Positions 6,261-49,862 of a stretch of 64,000 nt of DNA are shown here, in pieces (position 1 is the first letter of the stretch; each line of letters begins with the position of its first letter). Source of the DNA: an uncultured Nitrososphaeraceae archaeon (GTDB taxonomy: Archaea; Thermoproteota; Nitrososphaeria; Nitrososphaerales; Nitrososphaeraceae). Location: assembly GCA_963837175.1 (NCBI GenBank), contig CAWIMJ010000050.1, positions 32,001 through 96,000 of the forward strand. The letters run 5' to 3'. A program made the position numbers and the translations under genes. The notes beneath the pieces were generated by a model. That model was not told the origin of the DNA and did not search any database. It was given only the letters and a program-made list of their open reading frames with translations.

Positions 6261-6749
6261 TTATTTTTTCAAATTTTCTTCATTTTTCTGAATGCTTAAA
6301 CTTATCGATAATAATAGTTTCCATATCCCAAAGTTATGAAGAGAGAACTGCGTTGTAATCTTAATTATGCTTATGACATACATTAGGTCTTGACACTTGT
6401 TATGTCATCTGGTAGTTGATTATTCATCAATCTGTTGGTTTAGGTATATCAAACATTGAGAGGTTTCTTACAAGATGTTTTGGAATTCATTTAAAAATAT
6501 GAAAACGTGATATTTAATAATCAGAGAACAATACTTTTAGTTTATGAATCTTTCAACTTTACTGTGACTAAACATCAAGCCGTTTAATTTTCTATTTAGG
6601 CATTATTTTTGAAATATTATATACTTAAATTAAGTATATGAAATTTCTATAATAGTATATGCATTATTTATGTTCTAATATCGGTGAATATATATAAAAC
6701 AGGCTTAAAATTACCAGGATTTATAATATGATATTGCCAAGACTATGCT

Positions 6750-7007
6750 ATGAGGACACAACCTCTTCTTTTCTTTTACAGAAAAAAACATGTTAACGAT
6801 CAGGACTTTACCTTGTTACAATATTTTTGGGCTAATACCGCTTTGGCAATATTAATTACTATGCCTATGGTGGGATTAATGTTATACTTTCATCTCAACT
6901 ATAATAATTTGCTTTCTGGAACGCTCATAGGCTTTTCAATTCATATAATAGTATTAGCATTCTCAAAACGGCTTTCATCAATGTTAATAAACCTTGTTTC
7001 TATCTAA
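6750..7007 (+). CDS. Small membrane protein
   Basis: 85 aa with two hydrophobic helices. TATA-like TTTATAAT just upstream. Confidence 0.55.
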   Translation: MRTQPLLFFYRKKHVNDQDFTLLQYFWANTALAILITMPMVGLMLYFHLNYNNLLSGTLIGFSIHIIVLAFSKRLSSMLINLVSI

Positions 7008-7319
7008 CACTTTTATTTTTATTCTTGTACTAATTTCTATTTTTGGTTCTGTTGAATCATCCGTTGTTTTATTCCGTTGTTGGGATTCAGTTGGTAACTC
7101 CTTATTCTTTGGTGCAGGAACTTTCTTCGGAACTAATATTCTTTTAGAATGTAGGAATAGCTGTTGATACGCTTGATATAATTTCTTTTGCTTCATCAAT
7201 ATTGTGTCTGCATGGAATCCACATTCATAGCAAAGATATGCTTCTAACCTAGGATAATCTTCATTTATTACTTGATACATTCTGATATTACAGAAAGGAC
7301 ATCTAACTCGCACTATCAA
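6984..7319 (-). CDS. Zinc-ribbon passenger protein
   Basis: CPFC...CYECG. Overlaps the upstream ORF stop. Reads through the left IR and stops in host flank. Confidence 0.6.
   Translation of the reverse strand: MIVRVRCPFCNIRMYQVINEDYPRLEAYLCYECGFHADTILMKQKKLYQAYQQLFLHSKRILVPKKVPAPKNKELPTESQQRNKTTDDSTEPKIEISTRIKIKVLDRNKVY
7045..7097. repeat. Left end: terminal IR plus subterminal TC(A/C)GTTG repeats
   Basis: 7072-7097 (TTCCGTTGTTGGGATTCAGTTGGTAA) is the exact reverse complement of 9900-9925. Three TC(A/C)GTTG units are spaced about 14 bp apart. Confidence 0.9.
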
Positions 7320-7716
7320 GTTTCTTTACTACCTCTTTAAGTACTGTCAAAATATCTAGTAAGAGAGTGTTAGTCGAATCTAAACGTGAATGCAATTCTG
7401 AAATTTCCTTTTCTAGTTGTGATTGTGTAATTGTTTCCTCAATTACATCTGTTACCCTCATTCTGGCAAGTCGACTGAATATTCTACTCTCAGTTTCATC
7501 TAATTTGTCATCACGTAACTTACCTGAGACATACTGCTCTATATCAGAAAGCAGATTTGAACGTTCATTTATGGCGAATTCTCCTAAATCTGATTCTAAG
7601 TCAGGTAGTTTTATGAACTTTATTGACCCATCTATTAATCCTCTTACGAATCTTCTAACTTCCTCATGTCTGAACTCGCTCGTAAAGACATCAAGATTAT
7701 CTTCCTCATTTACCAT
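7303..7716 (-). CDS. Hypothetical passenger protein with C-terminal coiled coil
   Basis: Clean ORF (GTG 7725 or ATG 7716) overlapping the RHH stop. Heptad-like C-terminus. Confidence 0.7.
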   Translation of the reverse strand: MVNEEDNLDVFTSEFRHEEVRRFVRGLIDGSIKFIKLPDLESDLGEFAINERSNLLSDIEQYVSGKLRDDKLDETESRIFSRLARMRVTDVIEETITQSQLEKEISELHSRLDSTNTLLLDILTVLKEVVKKLDSAS

Positions 7717-7882
7717 TTCTGTCACTCTTCAGCTTTCTCTCTGATTCTCTTTCTAACCATGCATCTATGGCTTGAATGATTGCATCAGTCAAAGCACCAC
7801 GCCTAGCACCCATACGTCTTCCAACTTCCATACGTAGTTTCTTTTCTTTATCATCAGGTAAGATAACATCTATTCTGCCCAT
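7706..7882 (-). CDS. Ribbon-helix-helix (CopG/Arc-like) regulator, 58 aa
   Basis: Hand translation: MGRIDVILPDDKEKKLRMEVGRRMGARRGALTDAIIQAIDAWLERESERKLKSDRNGK. Alternating beta-strand followed by two helices. Below the ORF-track length cutoff. Confidence 0.8.
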   Translation of the reverse strand: MGRIDVILPDDKEKKLRMEVGRRMGARRGALTDAIIQAIDAWLERESERKLKSDRNGK

Positions 7883-7890
7883 CTTTATCT

Positions 7891-7995
7891 ATGTGTATTA
7901 TACTCTTATGGTATTAATAAACATATACACATAATACACACAACCACAACACTTTAATATGAATGTGTATAATACACATATGTGTATAACACACA
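7891..7995. promoter_or_regulatory. Divergent promoter region with palindromic ATGTGTAT-n-ATACACAT operators
   Basis: Perfect palindrome at 7963-7979, imperfect copies at 7980-7995 and 7891-7907, half-sites at 7924-7940. TATA-like boxes at 7953-7960 (+) and 7911-7921 (-). Confidence 0.65.
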
Positions 7996-9144
7996 GGACA
8001 AAGGGTATTCGGAAGCTTGGATGAAGAGAGGTATGGCTATCCTCGAAAGCAGCAGGATAACTGAACAAGAGGATGGTAGCTTTGCCGTTCCCTCTCAGAC
8101 GAGTACTAAGATAATCTATGAAGTTAAACTTATCGAAGTATATGGGTATGTTCATGTCCTGATTTCGAATATAGAGAGGTAGAATGTTGTAAGCATATTT
8201 ACTCTGTTAGATTCTGGATTGCTACTAATACCTATTTACAGAACAACAATCCCAAACCAAAAGTATTAGCTGATGATTCTATCCCGTGTGACAGATGTGG
8301 TTCTATCAGAGTTATCAAGTTTGGCCTTGATTGTGGTAAGCAAACCTACTACTGTAAAGACTGTCAACACAAGTTTAGACAACCATCATTGCTAAAGAAA
8401 GCAACGTTTAGTCCTGAATTGATAACTCTAACATTAGACCTATACTTTTCGGGATTATCACTTGGGAAAATAGCTAGGAATATTGGAGACCACTTTAACA
8501 TAGACATTAACTTCTCAACCATCTATGATTGGATCCAAAGATATATTCCAATCATATCTGAGTATGTAAACTCACTAACACCACAACTATCTGATACATG
8601 GCATGCTGACGAGATATTTGTAAAGATGCACGGTGGACTGACATACAAAGGCAAGACTAATCTAGCATTTCTATGGAATGTCATGGACAGGGATACAAGA
8701 TTTCTGTTAGCATCCAAAATATCTGAAGCTAGAGATATCAACGGTGCAGTAGCAATATTCAAAGAAGCTATAAAGAATGCTCATGGTAATGAACCTGAGA
8801 AAGTGTTAACAGATTCATGGAGAGCATACAGACAGGGAATAAGCGAGACATTCAAGAACATCAAACCTGAGCATGTAGCCAAATGCGGTATTGGTAAGCC
8901 GCATGCCAATAACAATAGAGTCGAAAGACTGAATGGAACTCTAAGAGAAAGAATCAAGGTGCAGAGAGCATGGAAGAAACACACTTCACCAATAGCAGAA
9001 GGACAGAGAATTCAGTATAATTTTGTCAAGCCTCACATGGCTTTAGAAGATGAGACACCTGCTAACAAAGCTGGAGTAGAAGTTAAAGGAAAGAATAAGT
9101 GGTTAGGCCTACTAAATTTATCTACAAAAAGGAACACAAAATAG
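7982..9144 (+). pseudogene. IS6-like DDE transposase with N-terminal SWIM finger and Zn ribbon, one frameshift near 8137
   Basis: Joining ORFs 7982-8182 and 8389-9144 across a 1-nt shift gives FAVPSQT...WVCSCPDFEYREVECCKH (SWIM), CDRC...CKDC, YFSGLSLGKIAR (HTH), WHADE, LTDSW and NNRVERLNG (DDE). Confidence 0.88.
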
Positions 9145-9314
9145 GCTAATATCCTTTATATATCGATAAAACAATAGAATAGATTGAGGATTGATATGGG
9201 ATCCTCCAAAATCAAAAATAACCCAATGGAAACAAAGCTAGCGGCTTGCAGCTTTGCTCGTGCTGTGTATATTATATAATATAATAATCCCTTCAATCCT
9301 TCTCCAAATGATTG

Positions 9315-9374
9315 CTCGTAGGTAAAAGTCGGGGAGTAAGCGGTGAACCGTCTACTACGGTGGATGGAGTCCTA
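9315..9374 (-). ncRNA. Candidate small structured RNA immediately downstream of the DUF3800-like gene
   Basis: GC-rich patch in AT-rich surroundings. Hairpin ACCGU-AGUAG-ACGGU (9347-9361) whose loop can pair with downstream UUACU (9335-9339). Folded by eye only. Confidence 0.3.
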
Positions 9375-9378
9375 ATTA

Positions 9379-9842
9379 TTATAGAAGACGTAAGCAATTC
9401 ATTTCCTTTGTGATGTTTGGATTATGAGTAATTGTAATCTCGCGATGTCTTGCAGCTTGAGATATCTTATGTGCTTCTCTAACTTCTCTACTATATTTTA
9501 GAGGCAAAAACTGAATTATAGGTTTGGTTCTATCACTGCCTAGATTAAAGACACCAAAGAGGCGCTCCATATATCTTTGAATTTCGTCAGCTCGTCTACC
9601 TTGAAAGTCTTTATCAATCTGAATGATATCATGCGCCTTCAATAAAGTATTGGATGTTTTAAAAATAGAATGGCATAGAGTTTGTCTACCCAATTCCGTG
9701 TGATATTTCTGAACTGATTTTGATAATCCTGATTTATATATACTCCAGTATGTTTTAGTTAGTTTTGTCTTCTTACAGCAACTATCCATACATCGGGGTT
9801 TCTAAGAATCTGGCCGCTGGTATCTATAGCTACTATTGCCAA
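9379..9842 (-). pseudogene. RNase H-fold (DUF3800-like) passenger gene with one stop and one frameshift
   Basis: From TTG 9842: MAIVAIDTSGQILRNPDVWIVAVRRQN*LKHTGVYINQ...WVDKLYAILF, then a shift in the A5 run at 9661-9665 into KTSNTLLKAHDIIQIDKDFQG...SREVREAHKIS. Confidence 0.55.
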
Positions 9843-9899
9843 CCAACTATTTCGGTGAGCTGGTAGAATGTCTCACTAATTAGTGTTTAAATGCACCCC

Positions 9900-9966
9900 T
9901 TACCAACTGAATCCCAACAACGGAAATTCAACAACTGATTTAAACACCTGAAGAGTCAACAGAACC
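9900..9966. repeat. Right end: subterminal repeats plus terminal IR
   Basis: Reverse complement is GGTTCTGTTGACTCTTCAGGTGTTTAAATCAGTTGTTGAATTTCCGTTGTTGGGATTCAGTTGGTAA. Four repeat units, one more than the left end. Confidence 0.9.
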
Positions 9967-10282
9967 CTATTTATTATAGAGATAATAATATTTTATTAAT
10001 AATTACACGATAATACGGATTATTTGAATAATAATTGTAATTAATCTCTACTTATAATGATAGACTTTATTCTTATTGACTCAATATGCGCTATAGCACA
10101 TAGATTTTGAGATTTGCCAAATCTGGAAACTTTGCCTGCAATCAGCTTAAACACCACCAACCCACTTAGAATCCTATATGCCATTAAAGTTTATTGTGAA
10201 ATATGCCGAAATATAAATACTAAAGTTGTGTTTGTATTTCCATCATGGGATACAGTCCCAACTTACAGATAAGAAAAGAACC

Positions 10283-11540
10283 TTAAAATCCCGCTCTAAC
10301 TGGATCATCTGGCTTCATTAGTTCTCGCAATAAAGTTGTTGCATATGATCCCTTTGGAAGTTTAAAACATACTGTAAGCGATCCTCTAAATGTGAAGTCT
10401 TTAGACCACAGAGGCGCTTGTCTAAAACCTCCTTGAGCACTTAATTCTTGCATCTCTTTTATGTAAAATTCTCTTGGTGTTATGCCTTCCATACTCATTA
10501 TTTTTTCTGTAATTGTGTCAAATCTTCCTTTGCCTGGTTGAAATGTATATCCTATTAGACGAATTGCTGGAACTGTTTGTGAATTTGAATCCGAACTCGA
10601 ATTATATTTTCTTATTCTGCCAAAAATTGATGAATTCTCTATTTCAAAGCATAGATCGCCTTCCTTGCTCTTTAGTACATTTTCACCATTTAAAACTGCA
10701 ACGCTCAAGGATCTATTAAAAATATATGCCTGATAAGCCTGAACAAATAACCTTCGGATGTTAATTGGAATGGATCGCAATGCTCGCTATCGGTCCCTTG
10801 CCCTTTTCTAATACTGACATTACTTGGTATTCTATATCCATCCGTTTAGGAAGTTCTCTAATAATTTGAGAATAGTTCTTTGGATCACGGCTTTTATTCC
10901 TTATCTCAATGCTCAGAGTGGAATCATATTCAGTGGTAAAAGTTAACAGAAGTTCTACTGCTTTTTGAAAATTGCGTTTTACAATTTCTTTTCCGACTAG
11001 ATGAGTAACCATTCTTTCACTTCCGAATCTTTGCAATCCATAAAAATTTGCTATAGTTTGTATCTCTGGTAGAAATGAGGTAATGTCTGAAAGGATAGGA
11101 TTGTTAATGGTAATTGTAAATGCATTTCCAGATAGAGAAGATTTTCCTATTGGGGCTTTAGTAAAGCCTTTCAAAGTTAAACGCGTATGCGCTGTTGTTG
11201 CTTCGTTTATTATATTTTTTGTCTGCTCTGAGCTAGCGTATTGTTTTGTTATTGCTTTCGCATCTTTTAGACCAATAACTTTCAGTTTAATACCAAGCTT
11301 CCTTTTAATCTCAAAGATTGCATGGTTTGAATCAATATTTCTTTTGTCCAAAATGTATAGTGGATATTTATGATGCTCATCTTGGATGGATGATATGTTG
11401 GCTAGGAAAGATGTATCTATTATCTCCGAAACTCTAAACTCCTCGTTACTACGCTTTATAGAACCACGGATCCCTTTATAGTCAGTACAGTAGCATTCAA
11501 TGCCAGCAAGTTTGTCAATTTTTGGAACTTGGGTATTCAT
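10283..11540 (-). CDS. truD: tRNA pseudouridine(13) synthase TruD, split by a 1-nt insertion at about 10785
   Basis: GLKDAKAITKQY, NFYGLQRFG and FKLPKGSYATTLLRE motifs. Removing C10785 fuses the two ORFs (GPIAALRSIP). Confidence 0.92.
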
Positions 11541-31849: not shown

Positions 31850-32301
31850 AACTTGATGCTATCTCCTATCGCAGCAGAAGAGTATAAACAAATTAATGCG
31901 GCTAAGTTTTGATATAGCTATATACAAAAGCAACCAAATAGTTGGCCATACATGATGCATAATTTCTCAGTTCAAAATGTTTGTAAACATTATTTTTAAT
32001 CACATAATTGACTAATGATTAGTAATAGTCGAATATGCCATTTGTCGATTGTTATCTATCCCCTTCTGAAAGACTAAGAATAGCATAAAATTTCCTTCAG
32101 CTCTTGTGGACCATTTCTTGCAATTGACAAGGATTATCTGGCTTGTTTCTCTAATGCAGCTTCTGGTTTTAGATAATCGAGAAATATTCTGAATCGACTA
32201 GGATATTGTCTTCTTGACTTTGCTGCTGCTTTTAGAGCATACATAAATAATGTGATGGGGTCTCGCTCGTCTTCTCCAATAGACAACATAATTATTTTCA
32301 T
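31850..32301 (-). pseudogene. Decayed tyrosine-integrase N-terminal remnant
   Basis: MKIIMLSIGEDERDPITLFMYALKAAAKSRRQYPSRFRIFLDYLKPEAALEKQAR* resembles the N-terminus of Nitrososphaeraceae integrases as I recall them. Frame broken downstream. Left limit approximate. Confidence 0.5.
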
Positions 32302-49176: not shown

Positions 49177-49862
49177 GGCTCTGTTCATTTAACCGGTGTA
49201 GTATTCATTACTTCCTTATTGTGTATATCTATAAACAGTTTCAACCAATTCTTTATGTGATTTAATTTGTAATTATCTTTTCTACAAGGAAAGTAATCAT
49301 CAAACGCTTCAGTTCTATCGTTGATGTATTGGATTGTTCTCTCAATAATGCTTTTCTCATATGTTGAATGAATATGATGTTCTATCTTCAGGAGTTTACA
49401 AGCGTATGAATACCATGTTCCTCCATCATCTGTTGAAAGTGAATGCTTTCCATAATCTTTTATTAATGAATTCAGGAATCGTTCTGCCACAAGAATTGTT
49501 CTTTCAAAAGAAATGTGTATTCCAAGAATGAATTTATTGATTGAATCGATAGCAATCCACAGCCAAGCAAATTGATTGCCAACTTTAATCAGAGTTTCAT
49601 CTATTATTATGAATGCTTGTATTTTCTTTTTCTTTTGCAGTATCTTCTTGGTTGGCTTGTACTTTTGTATCCAATTCCAGACGGTAACATGATTTCTCTT
49701 AATAAATGGCAAAAGTCTTTCAGATGTCTTTTTTAAAGATAGACCAGAAGAATATAAGTGCAATGCATATAGAGAATATATTTTGATGCTGTTTTGTTAC
49801 TTCTATACATTAAGAGAATAACAATGTATTAAGCTATACACTTTTCCTAAGTGAACAGAACC
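49177..49862 (-). mobile_element. Canonical short IS6-family element (686 bp)
   Basis: IRs GGCTCTGTTCATTTA and GGTTCTGTTCACTTA (13/15). Flanks GACCAATT and GACTAATT (7/8 TSD). Confidence 0.92.
49185..49810 (-). pseudogene. IS6 transposase, frameshifted near the start
   Basis: MYRSNKTASKYILY / ALHLYSSGLSLKKTS..HVTVWNWIQ..IDETLIK..STDDGG..IIERTIQ. Confidence 0.85.

Follow-up and report, generated by a model that had tools for sequence, protein, structure and literature searches.

A widespread archaeal family of IS6-related transposons with a regulator gene, frequent cargo and proposed self-repression

Introduction

Insertion sequences (IS) of the classical IS6/IS26 type are compact (~0.7–0.9 kb, with long clades up to 1.76 kb), encode a transposase only and, in the accessible parts of the published accounts, move cargo as two-copy pseudo-compound transposons. 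They have an 8-bp target duplication and a DDE_Tnp_IS240 core, together with tips that combine GG and CTGTT (motif per the accessible part of the 2021 IS6 review, PMC7986276). Here we describe an element that shares the tips, the duplication and the core, and is unlike compact IS6 in measuring 2922 bp, in holding four further genes and in belonging to a family that carries its cargo inside a single unit. It occupies positions 7045–9966 of a 64,000-nucleotide stretch (hereafter the window; positions 32,001–96,000, forward strand, of contig CAWIMJ010000050.1, assembly GCA_963837175.1) from an uncultured Nitrososphaeraceae archaeon. The host group, the ammonia-oxidising archaea, is key in soil nitrogen cycling and has few described mobile elements. 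We consider it likely that the insertion is one copy of an archaeal IS6-related unit transposon family with passenger genes, a regulator slot and proposed self-repression.

The closest described transposases are those of the ISCpe7 clade ('clade h/VII') of Clostridia, which like those of the present family have a Zn-finger, a helix-turn-helix (HTH), plus a DDE_Tnp_IS240-type domain; an ISCpe7-type protein was the best annotated tblastn match in a plasmid collection (28% identity over residues 95–371). As far as the accessible descriptions go, long Clostridial IS6-like elements also have 8-bp duplications and GG-type tips, and the ISTet2 clade ('i/VIII') has an N-terminal extension of ~100 aa too. 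Both clades are bacterial, 1226–1761 bp long (ISCpe7-type 1.2–1.35 kb) and limited to a transposase in those descriptions, whereas the present family is archaeal, has an N-terminal SWIM domain, ~52–67-bp ends with inner repeats, an upstream slot and a cargo slot, and spans 1.9–6.6 kb. ISDsp3 is IS6-type with a non-transposase gene inside its ends, as in the present family; in the accessible part of PMC7986276 it is a single bacterial element of 1449–1456 bp with one hypothetical gene, in contrast to the regulator slot and diverse cargo described below. Harmer and Hall, in the part of their work accessible to us, query whether the archaeal and long groups belong to the IS6 family, and the accessible part of a 2019 thaumarchaeal mobilome paper counts passenger-gene transposons among the classes undetected in archaea.

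The layout of the window element, a small DNA-binding gene head to head with the transposase gene and passengers inside the ends, is Tn3-like. In the Tn3 family tnpR diverges from tnpA, sites lie in the shared intergenic region, passengers stand inside the ends and the target duplication is 5 bp. The Tn3 transposase differs in superfamily branch and size, and the duplication is 8 bp here; a Tn3-like element was rejected, the window element having no resolvase or recombinase. In IS605-family elements, a ribbon-helix-helix (RHH) 'Arc' protein binds and represses the family's promoters (bioRxiv 10.64898/2026.09.24.754181, accessible part), and, as with the RHH-like gene of the window element, the transposon-encoded RHH gene stands next to a mobility-gene promoter. 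IS605 elements are HUH/TnpB-based and bacterial, with other chemistry, whereas the slot of the present family also takes AbrB-, ArsR-type or Zn-ribbon proteins.

Results

A 2922-bp insertion with complex ends and matching empty sites

The insertion begins with the IS6-type tip GGTTCTGTTGA at 7045 and ends with its complement at 9966. It is bordered by two copies of an 8-bp target sequence (ctattttt at 7037–7044, ctatttat at 9967–9974) that agree at 7 of 8 positions. A first-pass annotation, made from the sequence alone, had proposed these inverted repeats and this duplication, and both stand; what it had missed is that the tips are the outermost part of longer inverted repeats, so that the ends measure ~52–67 bp. 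The left complex end (7045–7097, plus strand) joins the tip to inner GTTGTT/GTTGGT repeats, and the right one (9900–9966, minus strand), likewise a tip with inner repeats, is 14 nt longer. The 49-nt terminal arms (7045–7093 and 9918–9966) agree at 78% of positions. Just inside, a subterminal inverted pair of 26 nt (7072–7097/9900–9925) is perfect, and 14 nt inserted into the right end account for its offset. The left end has GTTGTT at its positions 19 and 32, the right end at 32 and 46.

An empty site with a single target copy, which the first-pass annotation had suggested looking for in related strains, was found both in genomes and in metagenomes. In the same-genus genomes G003 and G004, flanks ~82–84% identical to those of the window are adjacent, without the 2922 bp and with a single copy of the target. 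The flank match stops at window 7044 in G003 and restarts at 9968 in G004, and G003 reads one GTATTTTG where the window has two target copies. In soil-metagenome contigs from three of four runs (X1, X2 and X4, from two studies), position 7036 is joined directly to 9967 with 0–2 other letters, i.e. these contigs skip 2930 (2922 + 8) bases. The same three runs also hold element-internal or junction contigs, and X4 has the filled right junction. Because empty sites exist, the insertion is real and a chance inverted repeat is refuted; from the presence of both empty and filled contigs, the insertion is polymorphic in soil populations in nature.

The transposase

The transposase gene (8021–9144, plus strand, with GTG at 7982 as an alternative start) is interrupted in the window. 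Frame A (8021–8179) reads up to YEVKLI, frame B (8128–9141, in the –1 frame) reads onward from WVCSCPDFEY, and alignment to intact relatives places a 1-nt deletion near 8134–8140. Intact relatives are 378–395 aa long; most full-length relatives are single open frames of 380–399 aa, 7 of the 10 best matches being without an internal stop. The first-pass annotation had described a protein with SWIM, Zn-ribbon, HTH and DDE domains; these domains were borne out, and the frameshift of the window copy had escaped it. DDE_Tnp_IS240 (PF13610) scored 51.6 bits in the window frame and 59–60.3 bits in intact relatives (cut-off 27), and the triad D209, D277 and E313 is invariant in five intact relatives, as are the SWIM residues C57, C59, C70 and H72. 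The SWIM model (PF04434) reached 21.8 bits in the intact relative L034 (3335–4483 of that locus; cut-off 19.6) and stayed below the cut-off in the window copy (16.9, the domain being cut by the frameshift) and in L039 (15.9). In the window's long frame the SWIM, Zn-ribbon and HTH matches are all below threshold.

Among NCBIfam families, IS6 was the best match for five transposases (101.4, 109.1, 108.3, 118.9 and 104.8 bits), and its model aligned from its position 1–2 on, HTH part included. The IS1/IS1595 Zn-binding domain passed its cut-off of 28 in two of the five, at 31.8–31.9 bits. Membership of IS1, the second-best NCBIfam match, was rejected at 45–63 bits, far under the 100-bit cut-off. 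ISH6 was likewise rejected, with 15.4 bits against a cut-off of 240 in one of the five and no match in the other four.

A divergent operon and its control region

Three overlapping open reading frames (ORFs) run on the minus strand, divergent from the transposase gene (overlaps 7706–7725 and 7303–7319). The first-pass annotation had listed them as an operon for RHH, coiled-coil and Zn-ribbon proteins; the three genes are there, with the correction that the Zn-ribbon ORF crosses the left end. The first gene encodes a 58-aa RHH-like protein (7706–7882) that aligns with six element-borne relatives in a common pattern of strand, helix, G-x-[RK]-[RK]-G loop and second helix. A hidden Markov model (HMM) purpose-built for this RHH family scores the 58-aa protein at E 7e-21, the protein itself being one of the seeds, and a PDB sequence search gave at best E=1, to 2k6l. 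For RHH-type proteins of relatives, Pfam support is RHH_1 in L081 (22.5 bits, cut-off 20.5) and RHH_6 in L170 (E 0.007).

The second gene (7303–7725) encodes a 140-aa helical protein with a 39-residue C-terminal helix. Just four homologues were present in 5.8 billion clusters; L170 and L075 encode homologues, and a metagenome scan with the alignment of this protein found no locus. An AlphaFold2 (AF2) model (predicted local distance difference test, pLDDT, 81) has helices at 15–31, 44–66, 71–91 and 100–138. Compared with PDB folds, the model reached at most Z 7.2 (75 residues); the other hits were to the single long helix and lay below the level relevant for a helical protein, and no match was convincing.

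The third gene (6984–7319) encodes a 111-aa Zn-ribbon protein (CPFC...CYEC) whose ORF runs into the flank. L170 (58% identity) and L075 (46%) have homologues at the same position, and there was no match in Pfam, NCBIfam or PADLOC. Crossing of the left end by the last gene of the upstream module is frequent (window 6984–7105; L053, L120, L035 and others), and the tip then encodes ...(D/E)(D/E)STEP. The frame stops in the flank, and the protein therefore receives a different C-terminal tail at each insertion.

Between the operon and the transposase gene lies a 138-bp control region (7883–8020) with three copies of the 13-bp palindrome GTGTATWATACAC (7893–7905, 7965–7977 and 7982–7994). One adjoins the operon start and two abut the transposase start (ATG 8021 or GTG 7982). 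Across the window, GTGTATWATACAC has 11 strand-matches at ≤2 mismatches vs 2.36 expected, a count reached by 0 of 100 shuffles, and all four strand-matches with ≤1 mismatch fall within the three sites of the control region. Relatives have palindromes of their own in the same region; three AbrB-type elements of different loci share TTAGGTRCCTAA. The three palindromes fit a putative role of the RHH protein as a repressor acting through them.

The cargo gene of the window copy

Convergent to the transposase gene is a cargo pseudogene (9379–9842, minus strand), the remnant of a 154-aa RNase H-like-fold protein. Its open part is ORF 9379–9789. The N-terminal third of its homologues, with an AIDTSGQ motif, is found in another window frame behind an in-frame TAA (9759–9761), and the gene therefore extends over 9379–9842, disrupted once by a nonsense codon and once by a frameshift. 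The TAA is spanned by an X4 contig that shows no difference at that point. The intact homologues P0007 and P0008 are 152–154 aa long, and an intact gene lies at the same position in the sister element L118. The protein family is small: a search of 1.84 billion proteins yielded 44 representatives. Across 27 sequences D7 never varies and D77 hardly does.

For the convergent RNase H-fold gene named in the first-pass annotation, the fold is upheld for an intact homologue, with the correction that the window copy is a pseudogene. The AF2 model of P0007 (pLDDT 95.4; predicted template modelling score, pTM, 0.91), compared by VIA-align over PDB representatives, matched RNase HII best (1io2_A; Z 10.2, root-mean-square deviation 2.7, 121 residues). 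RNase HIII (2d0a_A, Z 9.8) and PIWI domains were further matches, and the ranked list is nearly all RNase H-like with few low exceptions. By this predicted structure, the RNase H-like fold of the intact cargo protein holds. Sequence models are weak for the family: one of 27 members matches PF04308 (E 0.018), and PDB sequence searches returned no match for the cargo pair and E=0.54 to an unrelated chain for the family.

With a frameshifted transposase and a cargo gene disrupted by both a nonsense codon and a frameshift, the copy in the window is probably dead or defective. The metagenome contigs cover neither 8077–8290 nor most of 8933–9681, i.e. neither of the two frameshift sites in the element.

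A widespread family of delimited elements

IS6-related transposons with a regulator gene and frequent cargo are widespread in archaea. Transposase relatives occur in 19 of 41 related genomes; close ones (62–77% identity) lie in other genera of the same family, and among six congeners one has a relative, weakly. Of 175 genome stretches, 66 encode relatives; by their record titles these come from Nitrosocosmicus, Nitrososphaera, Nitrosotalea, Nitrosopumilales, Nitrosomirales, Bathyarchaeia, Methanosarcinales and Thermoplasmatales. Among metagenome stretches, 211 of 244 do so. At E≤1e-10 there are 1005 protein clusters, called, where they have any name, 'IS6 family transposase', 'DDE-type integrase/transposase/recombinase' or 'transposase-like protein'.

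Elements were delimited by GG...CC inverted tips together with a target duplication. The GG(T/C)TCTGT-type tips and perfect 8-bp duplications anticipated for homologues in the first-pass annotation were recovered at 12 of 38 genome loci, at L076 by a relaxed search and at 23 of 80 metagenome loci, to which two further loci are added. Five of the 23 metagenome elements are the same insertions met twice, and with the second copy L084 and the pseudogenised L041 left out the non-redundant set comprises 34 complete elements. Their duplications agree at 8/8 positions in 31, at 7/8 in the window, at 6/8 in L058 and, as scored, at 5/8 in L073. No complete end pair was found by the GG..CC and relaxed searches for 25 of the 38 genome loci, some of them truncated where a contig ends and others with degenerate tips. 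Among the 80 metagenome loci, many of them on contigs <3 kb, 55 gave no end pair and two more a doubtful 6/8 pair.

The 34 elements measure 1937–6602 bp (median ~2860). The distance between left end and transposase start reaches 300 bp or more in all but one of them (33 of 34; median ~1.1 kb); that between transposase stop and right end does so in 27 and is <150 bp in the other 7. Passenger genes stand inside one inverted-repeat pair in the window element, whose empty sites lack the whole 2922 bp, and in relatives with perfect duplications; they lie within the ends and not outside them in relatives, as the first-pass reading required. The family inverted repeats are of GGTTCTGT type. A 6-mer present at least twice in each 75-nt end was found in 24 of the 34 elements vs 1 of 680 internal control pairs; the repeats are mostly ~27 nt apart and adjoin a second tip-like box.

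Several individual loci show further arrangements. One Bathyarchaeia contig holds two 2748-bp copies (L083 and L084, 4881–7628 in each locus) with different perfect duplications (ttacgtaa vs atcccgag), a sign of recent transposition. In L039 a complete 3200-bp element (6740–9939) is followed by a second left end (GGTTCTGTCTAC...) from 9948, 8 bp past its right end, so that two members stand back to back. The transposase gene of L086 (455–2748) is interrupted by another IS with a 300-aa rve-type transposase; minus this insert the element would be ~1.3 kb and have no upstream slot, the sole such case in the set. In L067 (5186–8400), which was left out of the set, the inverted repeats on either side of the transposase gene measure 100 and 90 bp (84% identity) and are unlike the usual tips of the family.

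The upstream slot, module exchange and cargo in relatives

Purpose-built HMMs recognise an RHH-type gene in the upstream slot of 22 of the 34 elements and one of AbrB type in another 6. A small DNA-binding gene thus stands in the divergent position in 28 of 34; the first-pass expectation of a divergent RHH gene was right about the position, with unrelated folds taking that place in different elements. A small Zn-ribbon protein with CPKCKSPYWDKPR is encoded in three more elements and a DUF2080 protein in one; the remaining two slots belong to an element interrupted by another IS and to one with a deletion. Besides the RHH_1 match (22.5 vs 20.5 bits), Pfam supports slot genes as MazE_antitoxin (30 vs 24.7 bits) and, in L041, as ArsR-type HTH. 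The seeds of the RHH HMM were picked by position and appearance, and 7 of the 22 RHH calls are non-seeds.

The full three-gene module of the window recurs in L170 (intact, 3074 bp, duplication aaaatgat) and in L075. The sister element L118 is 85.6% identical in DNA to the window element over the transposase and cargo half only and has a different left module. Among the accessory proteins of the first 15 related elements, none gave a significant tblastn match to the window accessory genes, homologues being found in L170, L075 and L118. On a tree of 31 intact transposases, from which the broken ones of the window, L078 and L086 were omitted, regulator type needs 10 changes, vs 10.5 on average after shuffling. 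It thus fails to track the transposase phylogeny, and by this comparison of sequences modules are exchanged between transposase lineages.

Cargo differs between elements, as had been foreseen, extends to anti-virus defence genes and includes restriction-modification genes, a dCTP deaminase, NYN nucleases, proteasome/Ntn-like hydrolases, aspartyl and trypsin-like proteases and a phosphoribosyltransferase. A 6.6-kb member in a Methanosarcinales record (L087, 3397–9998) carries a complete type II pair, an N6_N4 methyltransferase and an MjaI-type endonuclease, together with a DUF2080 gene. The 505-aa deaminase of a 4-kb member (L190, 3814–7830) scores 509 bits with the PADLOC model of the dCTPase defence protein. 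In PADLOC, 7 of 26 tested proteins match, including this dCTPase and MTase_II plus REase_II; none of the window element's own proteins does.

Other features of the window

An ordinary IS6 element, to which the first-pass annotation had pointed for comparison at 49177, was confirmed at 49177–49862 (686 bp). It has one gene, a 192-aa DDE_Tnp_IS240 protein on the minus strand, short inverted repeats only (tips GGCTCTGTTCA and GGTTCTGTTCA) and flanking 8-mers gaccaatt and gactaatt (7/8). Its transposase and that of the 2922-bp element share only 26% identity over 130 residues.

Two genes turn their 3' ends towards the 2922-bp insertion, a small membrane-protein ORF (6750–7007) on one side and a TruD-like pseudouridine synthase gene (10283–11540, minus strand) on the other, the latter split into the overlapping frames 10283–10780 and 10761–11540 (165 and 259 aa). 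Rfam returned nothing at E≤0.1 in 6800–10200. A scan for sigma-70 promoters and terminators found 11 vs 14.6 expected, this bacterial promoter type being the wrong one for an archaeon. Decayed transposase-related fragments lie elsewhere in the window's own genome (contig C30, 7682–8035, and contig C36, 29224–29475; 69–70% DNA identity), one with an internal TGA.

Discussion

The features of the window element and its relatives suggest how such a transposon might work. Each end consists of an IS6-type tip and an inner repeat and, because both hold the same two boxes, probably offers two transposase-binding units; the SWIM and Zn-ribbon domains would perhaps be used for the inner boxes. The ~385-aa transposase, with SWIM, Zn-ribbon, HTH and DDE_Tnp_IS240 domains, would join the ends to target DNA whose strands are cut 8 bp apart. 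By analogy with IS6/IS26, the element is probably copied in via a cointegrate that is then resolved by host recombination. Divergent from the transposase gene lies an obligatory ~1-kb slot that opens with a small DNA-binding protein, of RHH type here. This protein is proposed to bind the three GTGTATWATACAC palindromes in the 138-bp region and so to repress both the transposase gene and its own operon, with which the genes for the 140-aa helical and 111-aa Zn-ribbon proteins are presumably co-transcribed. An optional downstream slot takes cargo, in the window lineage the RNase H-like-fold protein. The first-pass interpretation of the element is largely right, with the repressor function suggested by a fold-like pattern and by operator-like palindromes.

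Rather than regulating the transposase, the RHH- or AbrB-led modules could be toxin-antitoxin-like addiction or defence cargo, whose palindromes autoregulate the operon alone. RHH and AbrB/MazE are classic antitoxin folds, and MazE_antitoxin matches of 30 and 22.3 bits weigh for such cargo and against transposase regulation. The operon genes overlap, at 7706–7725 and 7303–7319, like those of toxin-antitoxin operons, the partner genes in relatives include proteases, Ntn/proteasome-like hydrolases and the PADLOC candidates PDC-S45 and PDC-M08B, and modules are swapped between transposase lineages. However, the small DNA-binding gene keeps its place and its head-to-head orientation to the transposase gene in at least 28 of the 34 elements even where its partners vary or are missing; free cargo should turn up in any place, the downstream slot being an example. 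This constant position with changing partners argues that the role of the regulator concerns the transposase. Moreover, two of the three window palindromes (7965–7994) abut the transposase start, at ATG 8021 or GTG 7982, and no partner matches a known toxin family in Pfam, NCBIfam or PADLOC. We regard an addiction module in place of a transposase regulator as somewhat unlikely; the two functions can also coexist.

The interrupted transposase frame raises a separate alternative, namely that ribosomes are programmed to shift to the –1 frame, like those on IS1 and IS3 transcripts, which would yield a short SWIM-less regulator and a full-length fusion. In its favour, the shift is –1 and separates an N-terminal segment from the remaining protein. 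Yet there is no slippery heptamer at ATCGAAGTATATGG, the shift falls inside the SWIM module just ahead of CxC, most full-length relatives are single open frames and the adjoining housekeeping gene is likewise split, so that we give this explanation hardly any credence. As to classification, the element could belong to a group already curated in ISfinder, either the long IS6 clades or an IS1-family subgroup with large passenger-carrying members. Such a subgroup of IS1 has large members with passenger genes, 'ISMhu11' being the candidate. The order of Zn-ribbon, HTH and DDE domains is common to the ISCpe7 clade over the aligned residues 95–371 (28% identity), NCBIfam ranks IS1 next after IS6, with the IS1/IS1595 Zn domain above its cut-off, some members are publicly annotated 'IS6 family transposase', and Pfam describes DUF2080 as a 'putative transposon-encoded protein'. 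Against this, the 2021 IS6 review (PMC7986276), in its accessible part, has one passenger-carrying member (ISDsp3), Zn-finger clades from Clostridia only and no Thaumarchaeota. In the accessible parts of the other two sources, the long members of Harmer and Hall measure 1226–1761 bp and the 2019 thaumarchaeal mobilome paper has IS of one to two genes. A literature search, which did not cover supplements, returned no paper that joins 'SWIM zinc finger' with transposase, archaeal and IS6, and none that names 'ISMhu11'. Going by this literature, prior curation seems to us quite improbable.

Several observations weigh against the interpretation of the insertion as one member of a self-repressing IS6-related transposon family. 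The 58-aa RHH-like protein has no Pfam or NCBIfam match, and all five transposases remain under the NCBIfam IS6 cut-off of 125 bits. The window transposase frame is broken and the element is single-copy in its genome; a search of RNA runs listed none containing the stretch. The TruD-like neighbour is split here and is one 422-aa frame in the congeners G003 and G004, and the frameshifts of the transposase and cargo genes may therefore be assembly errors. Among the relatives, delimitations with weak tips (10–11 of 16 matches) lean mainly on the 8/8 duplication, and by a rough estimate ~1 false end pair is expected over 80 loci. Finally, since the RHH seeds were chosen by position and appearance, the count of 22 in 34 leans on that choice.

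An IS6-related unit transposon family with a regulator cassette and complex ends is apparently undescribed, the literature searches having returned no account of it. In its widest form the proposal would be of a large archaeal unit-transposon family built from an IS6-like core, with a SWIM and Zn-ribbon N-terminus and duplicated binding units that make four end sites per element, an obligatory, readily exchangeable regulator cassette with its own operators and an open cargo bay. Such a family may be a main single-unit vehicle of defence and conflict genes (for restriction-modification, dCTP deaminase, NYN and RNase H-like nucleases) in ammonia-oxidising and other soil archaea. We advance this wider claim tentatively, holding it at just short of even confidence.

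Elements of this kind, common in ammonia-oxidising archaea, unite their own regulator and passengers in one unit, as against the picture of IS6 as minimal one-gene elements that move genes as two-copy structures. They would also have a bearing on the debate over splitting the archaeal and long 'IS6' groups off as separate families. If confirmed, the family would represent a route for defence-gene traffic in ammonia-oxidising archaea, and its swappable regulator-operator cassettes would lend themselves to the study of transposon self-restraint. It would also provide a compact archaeal transposon with defined ends, a possible genetic tool for Nitrososphaeria, where tools are lacking.

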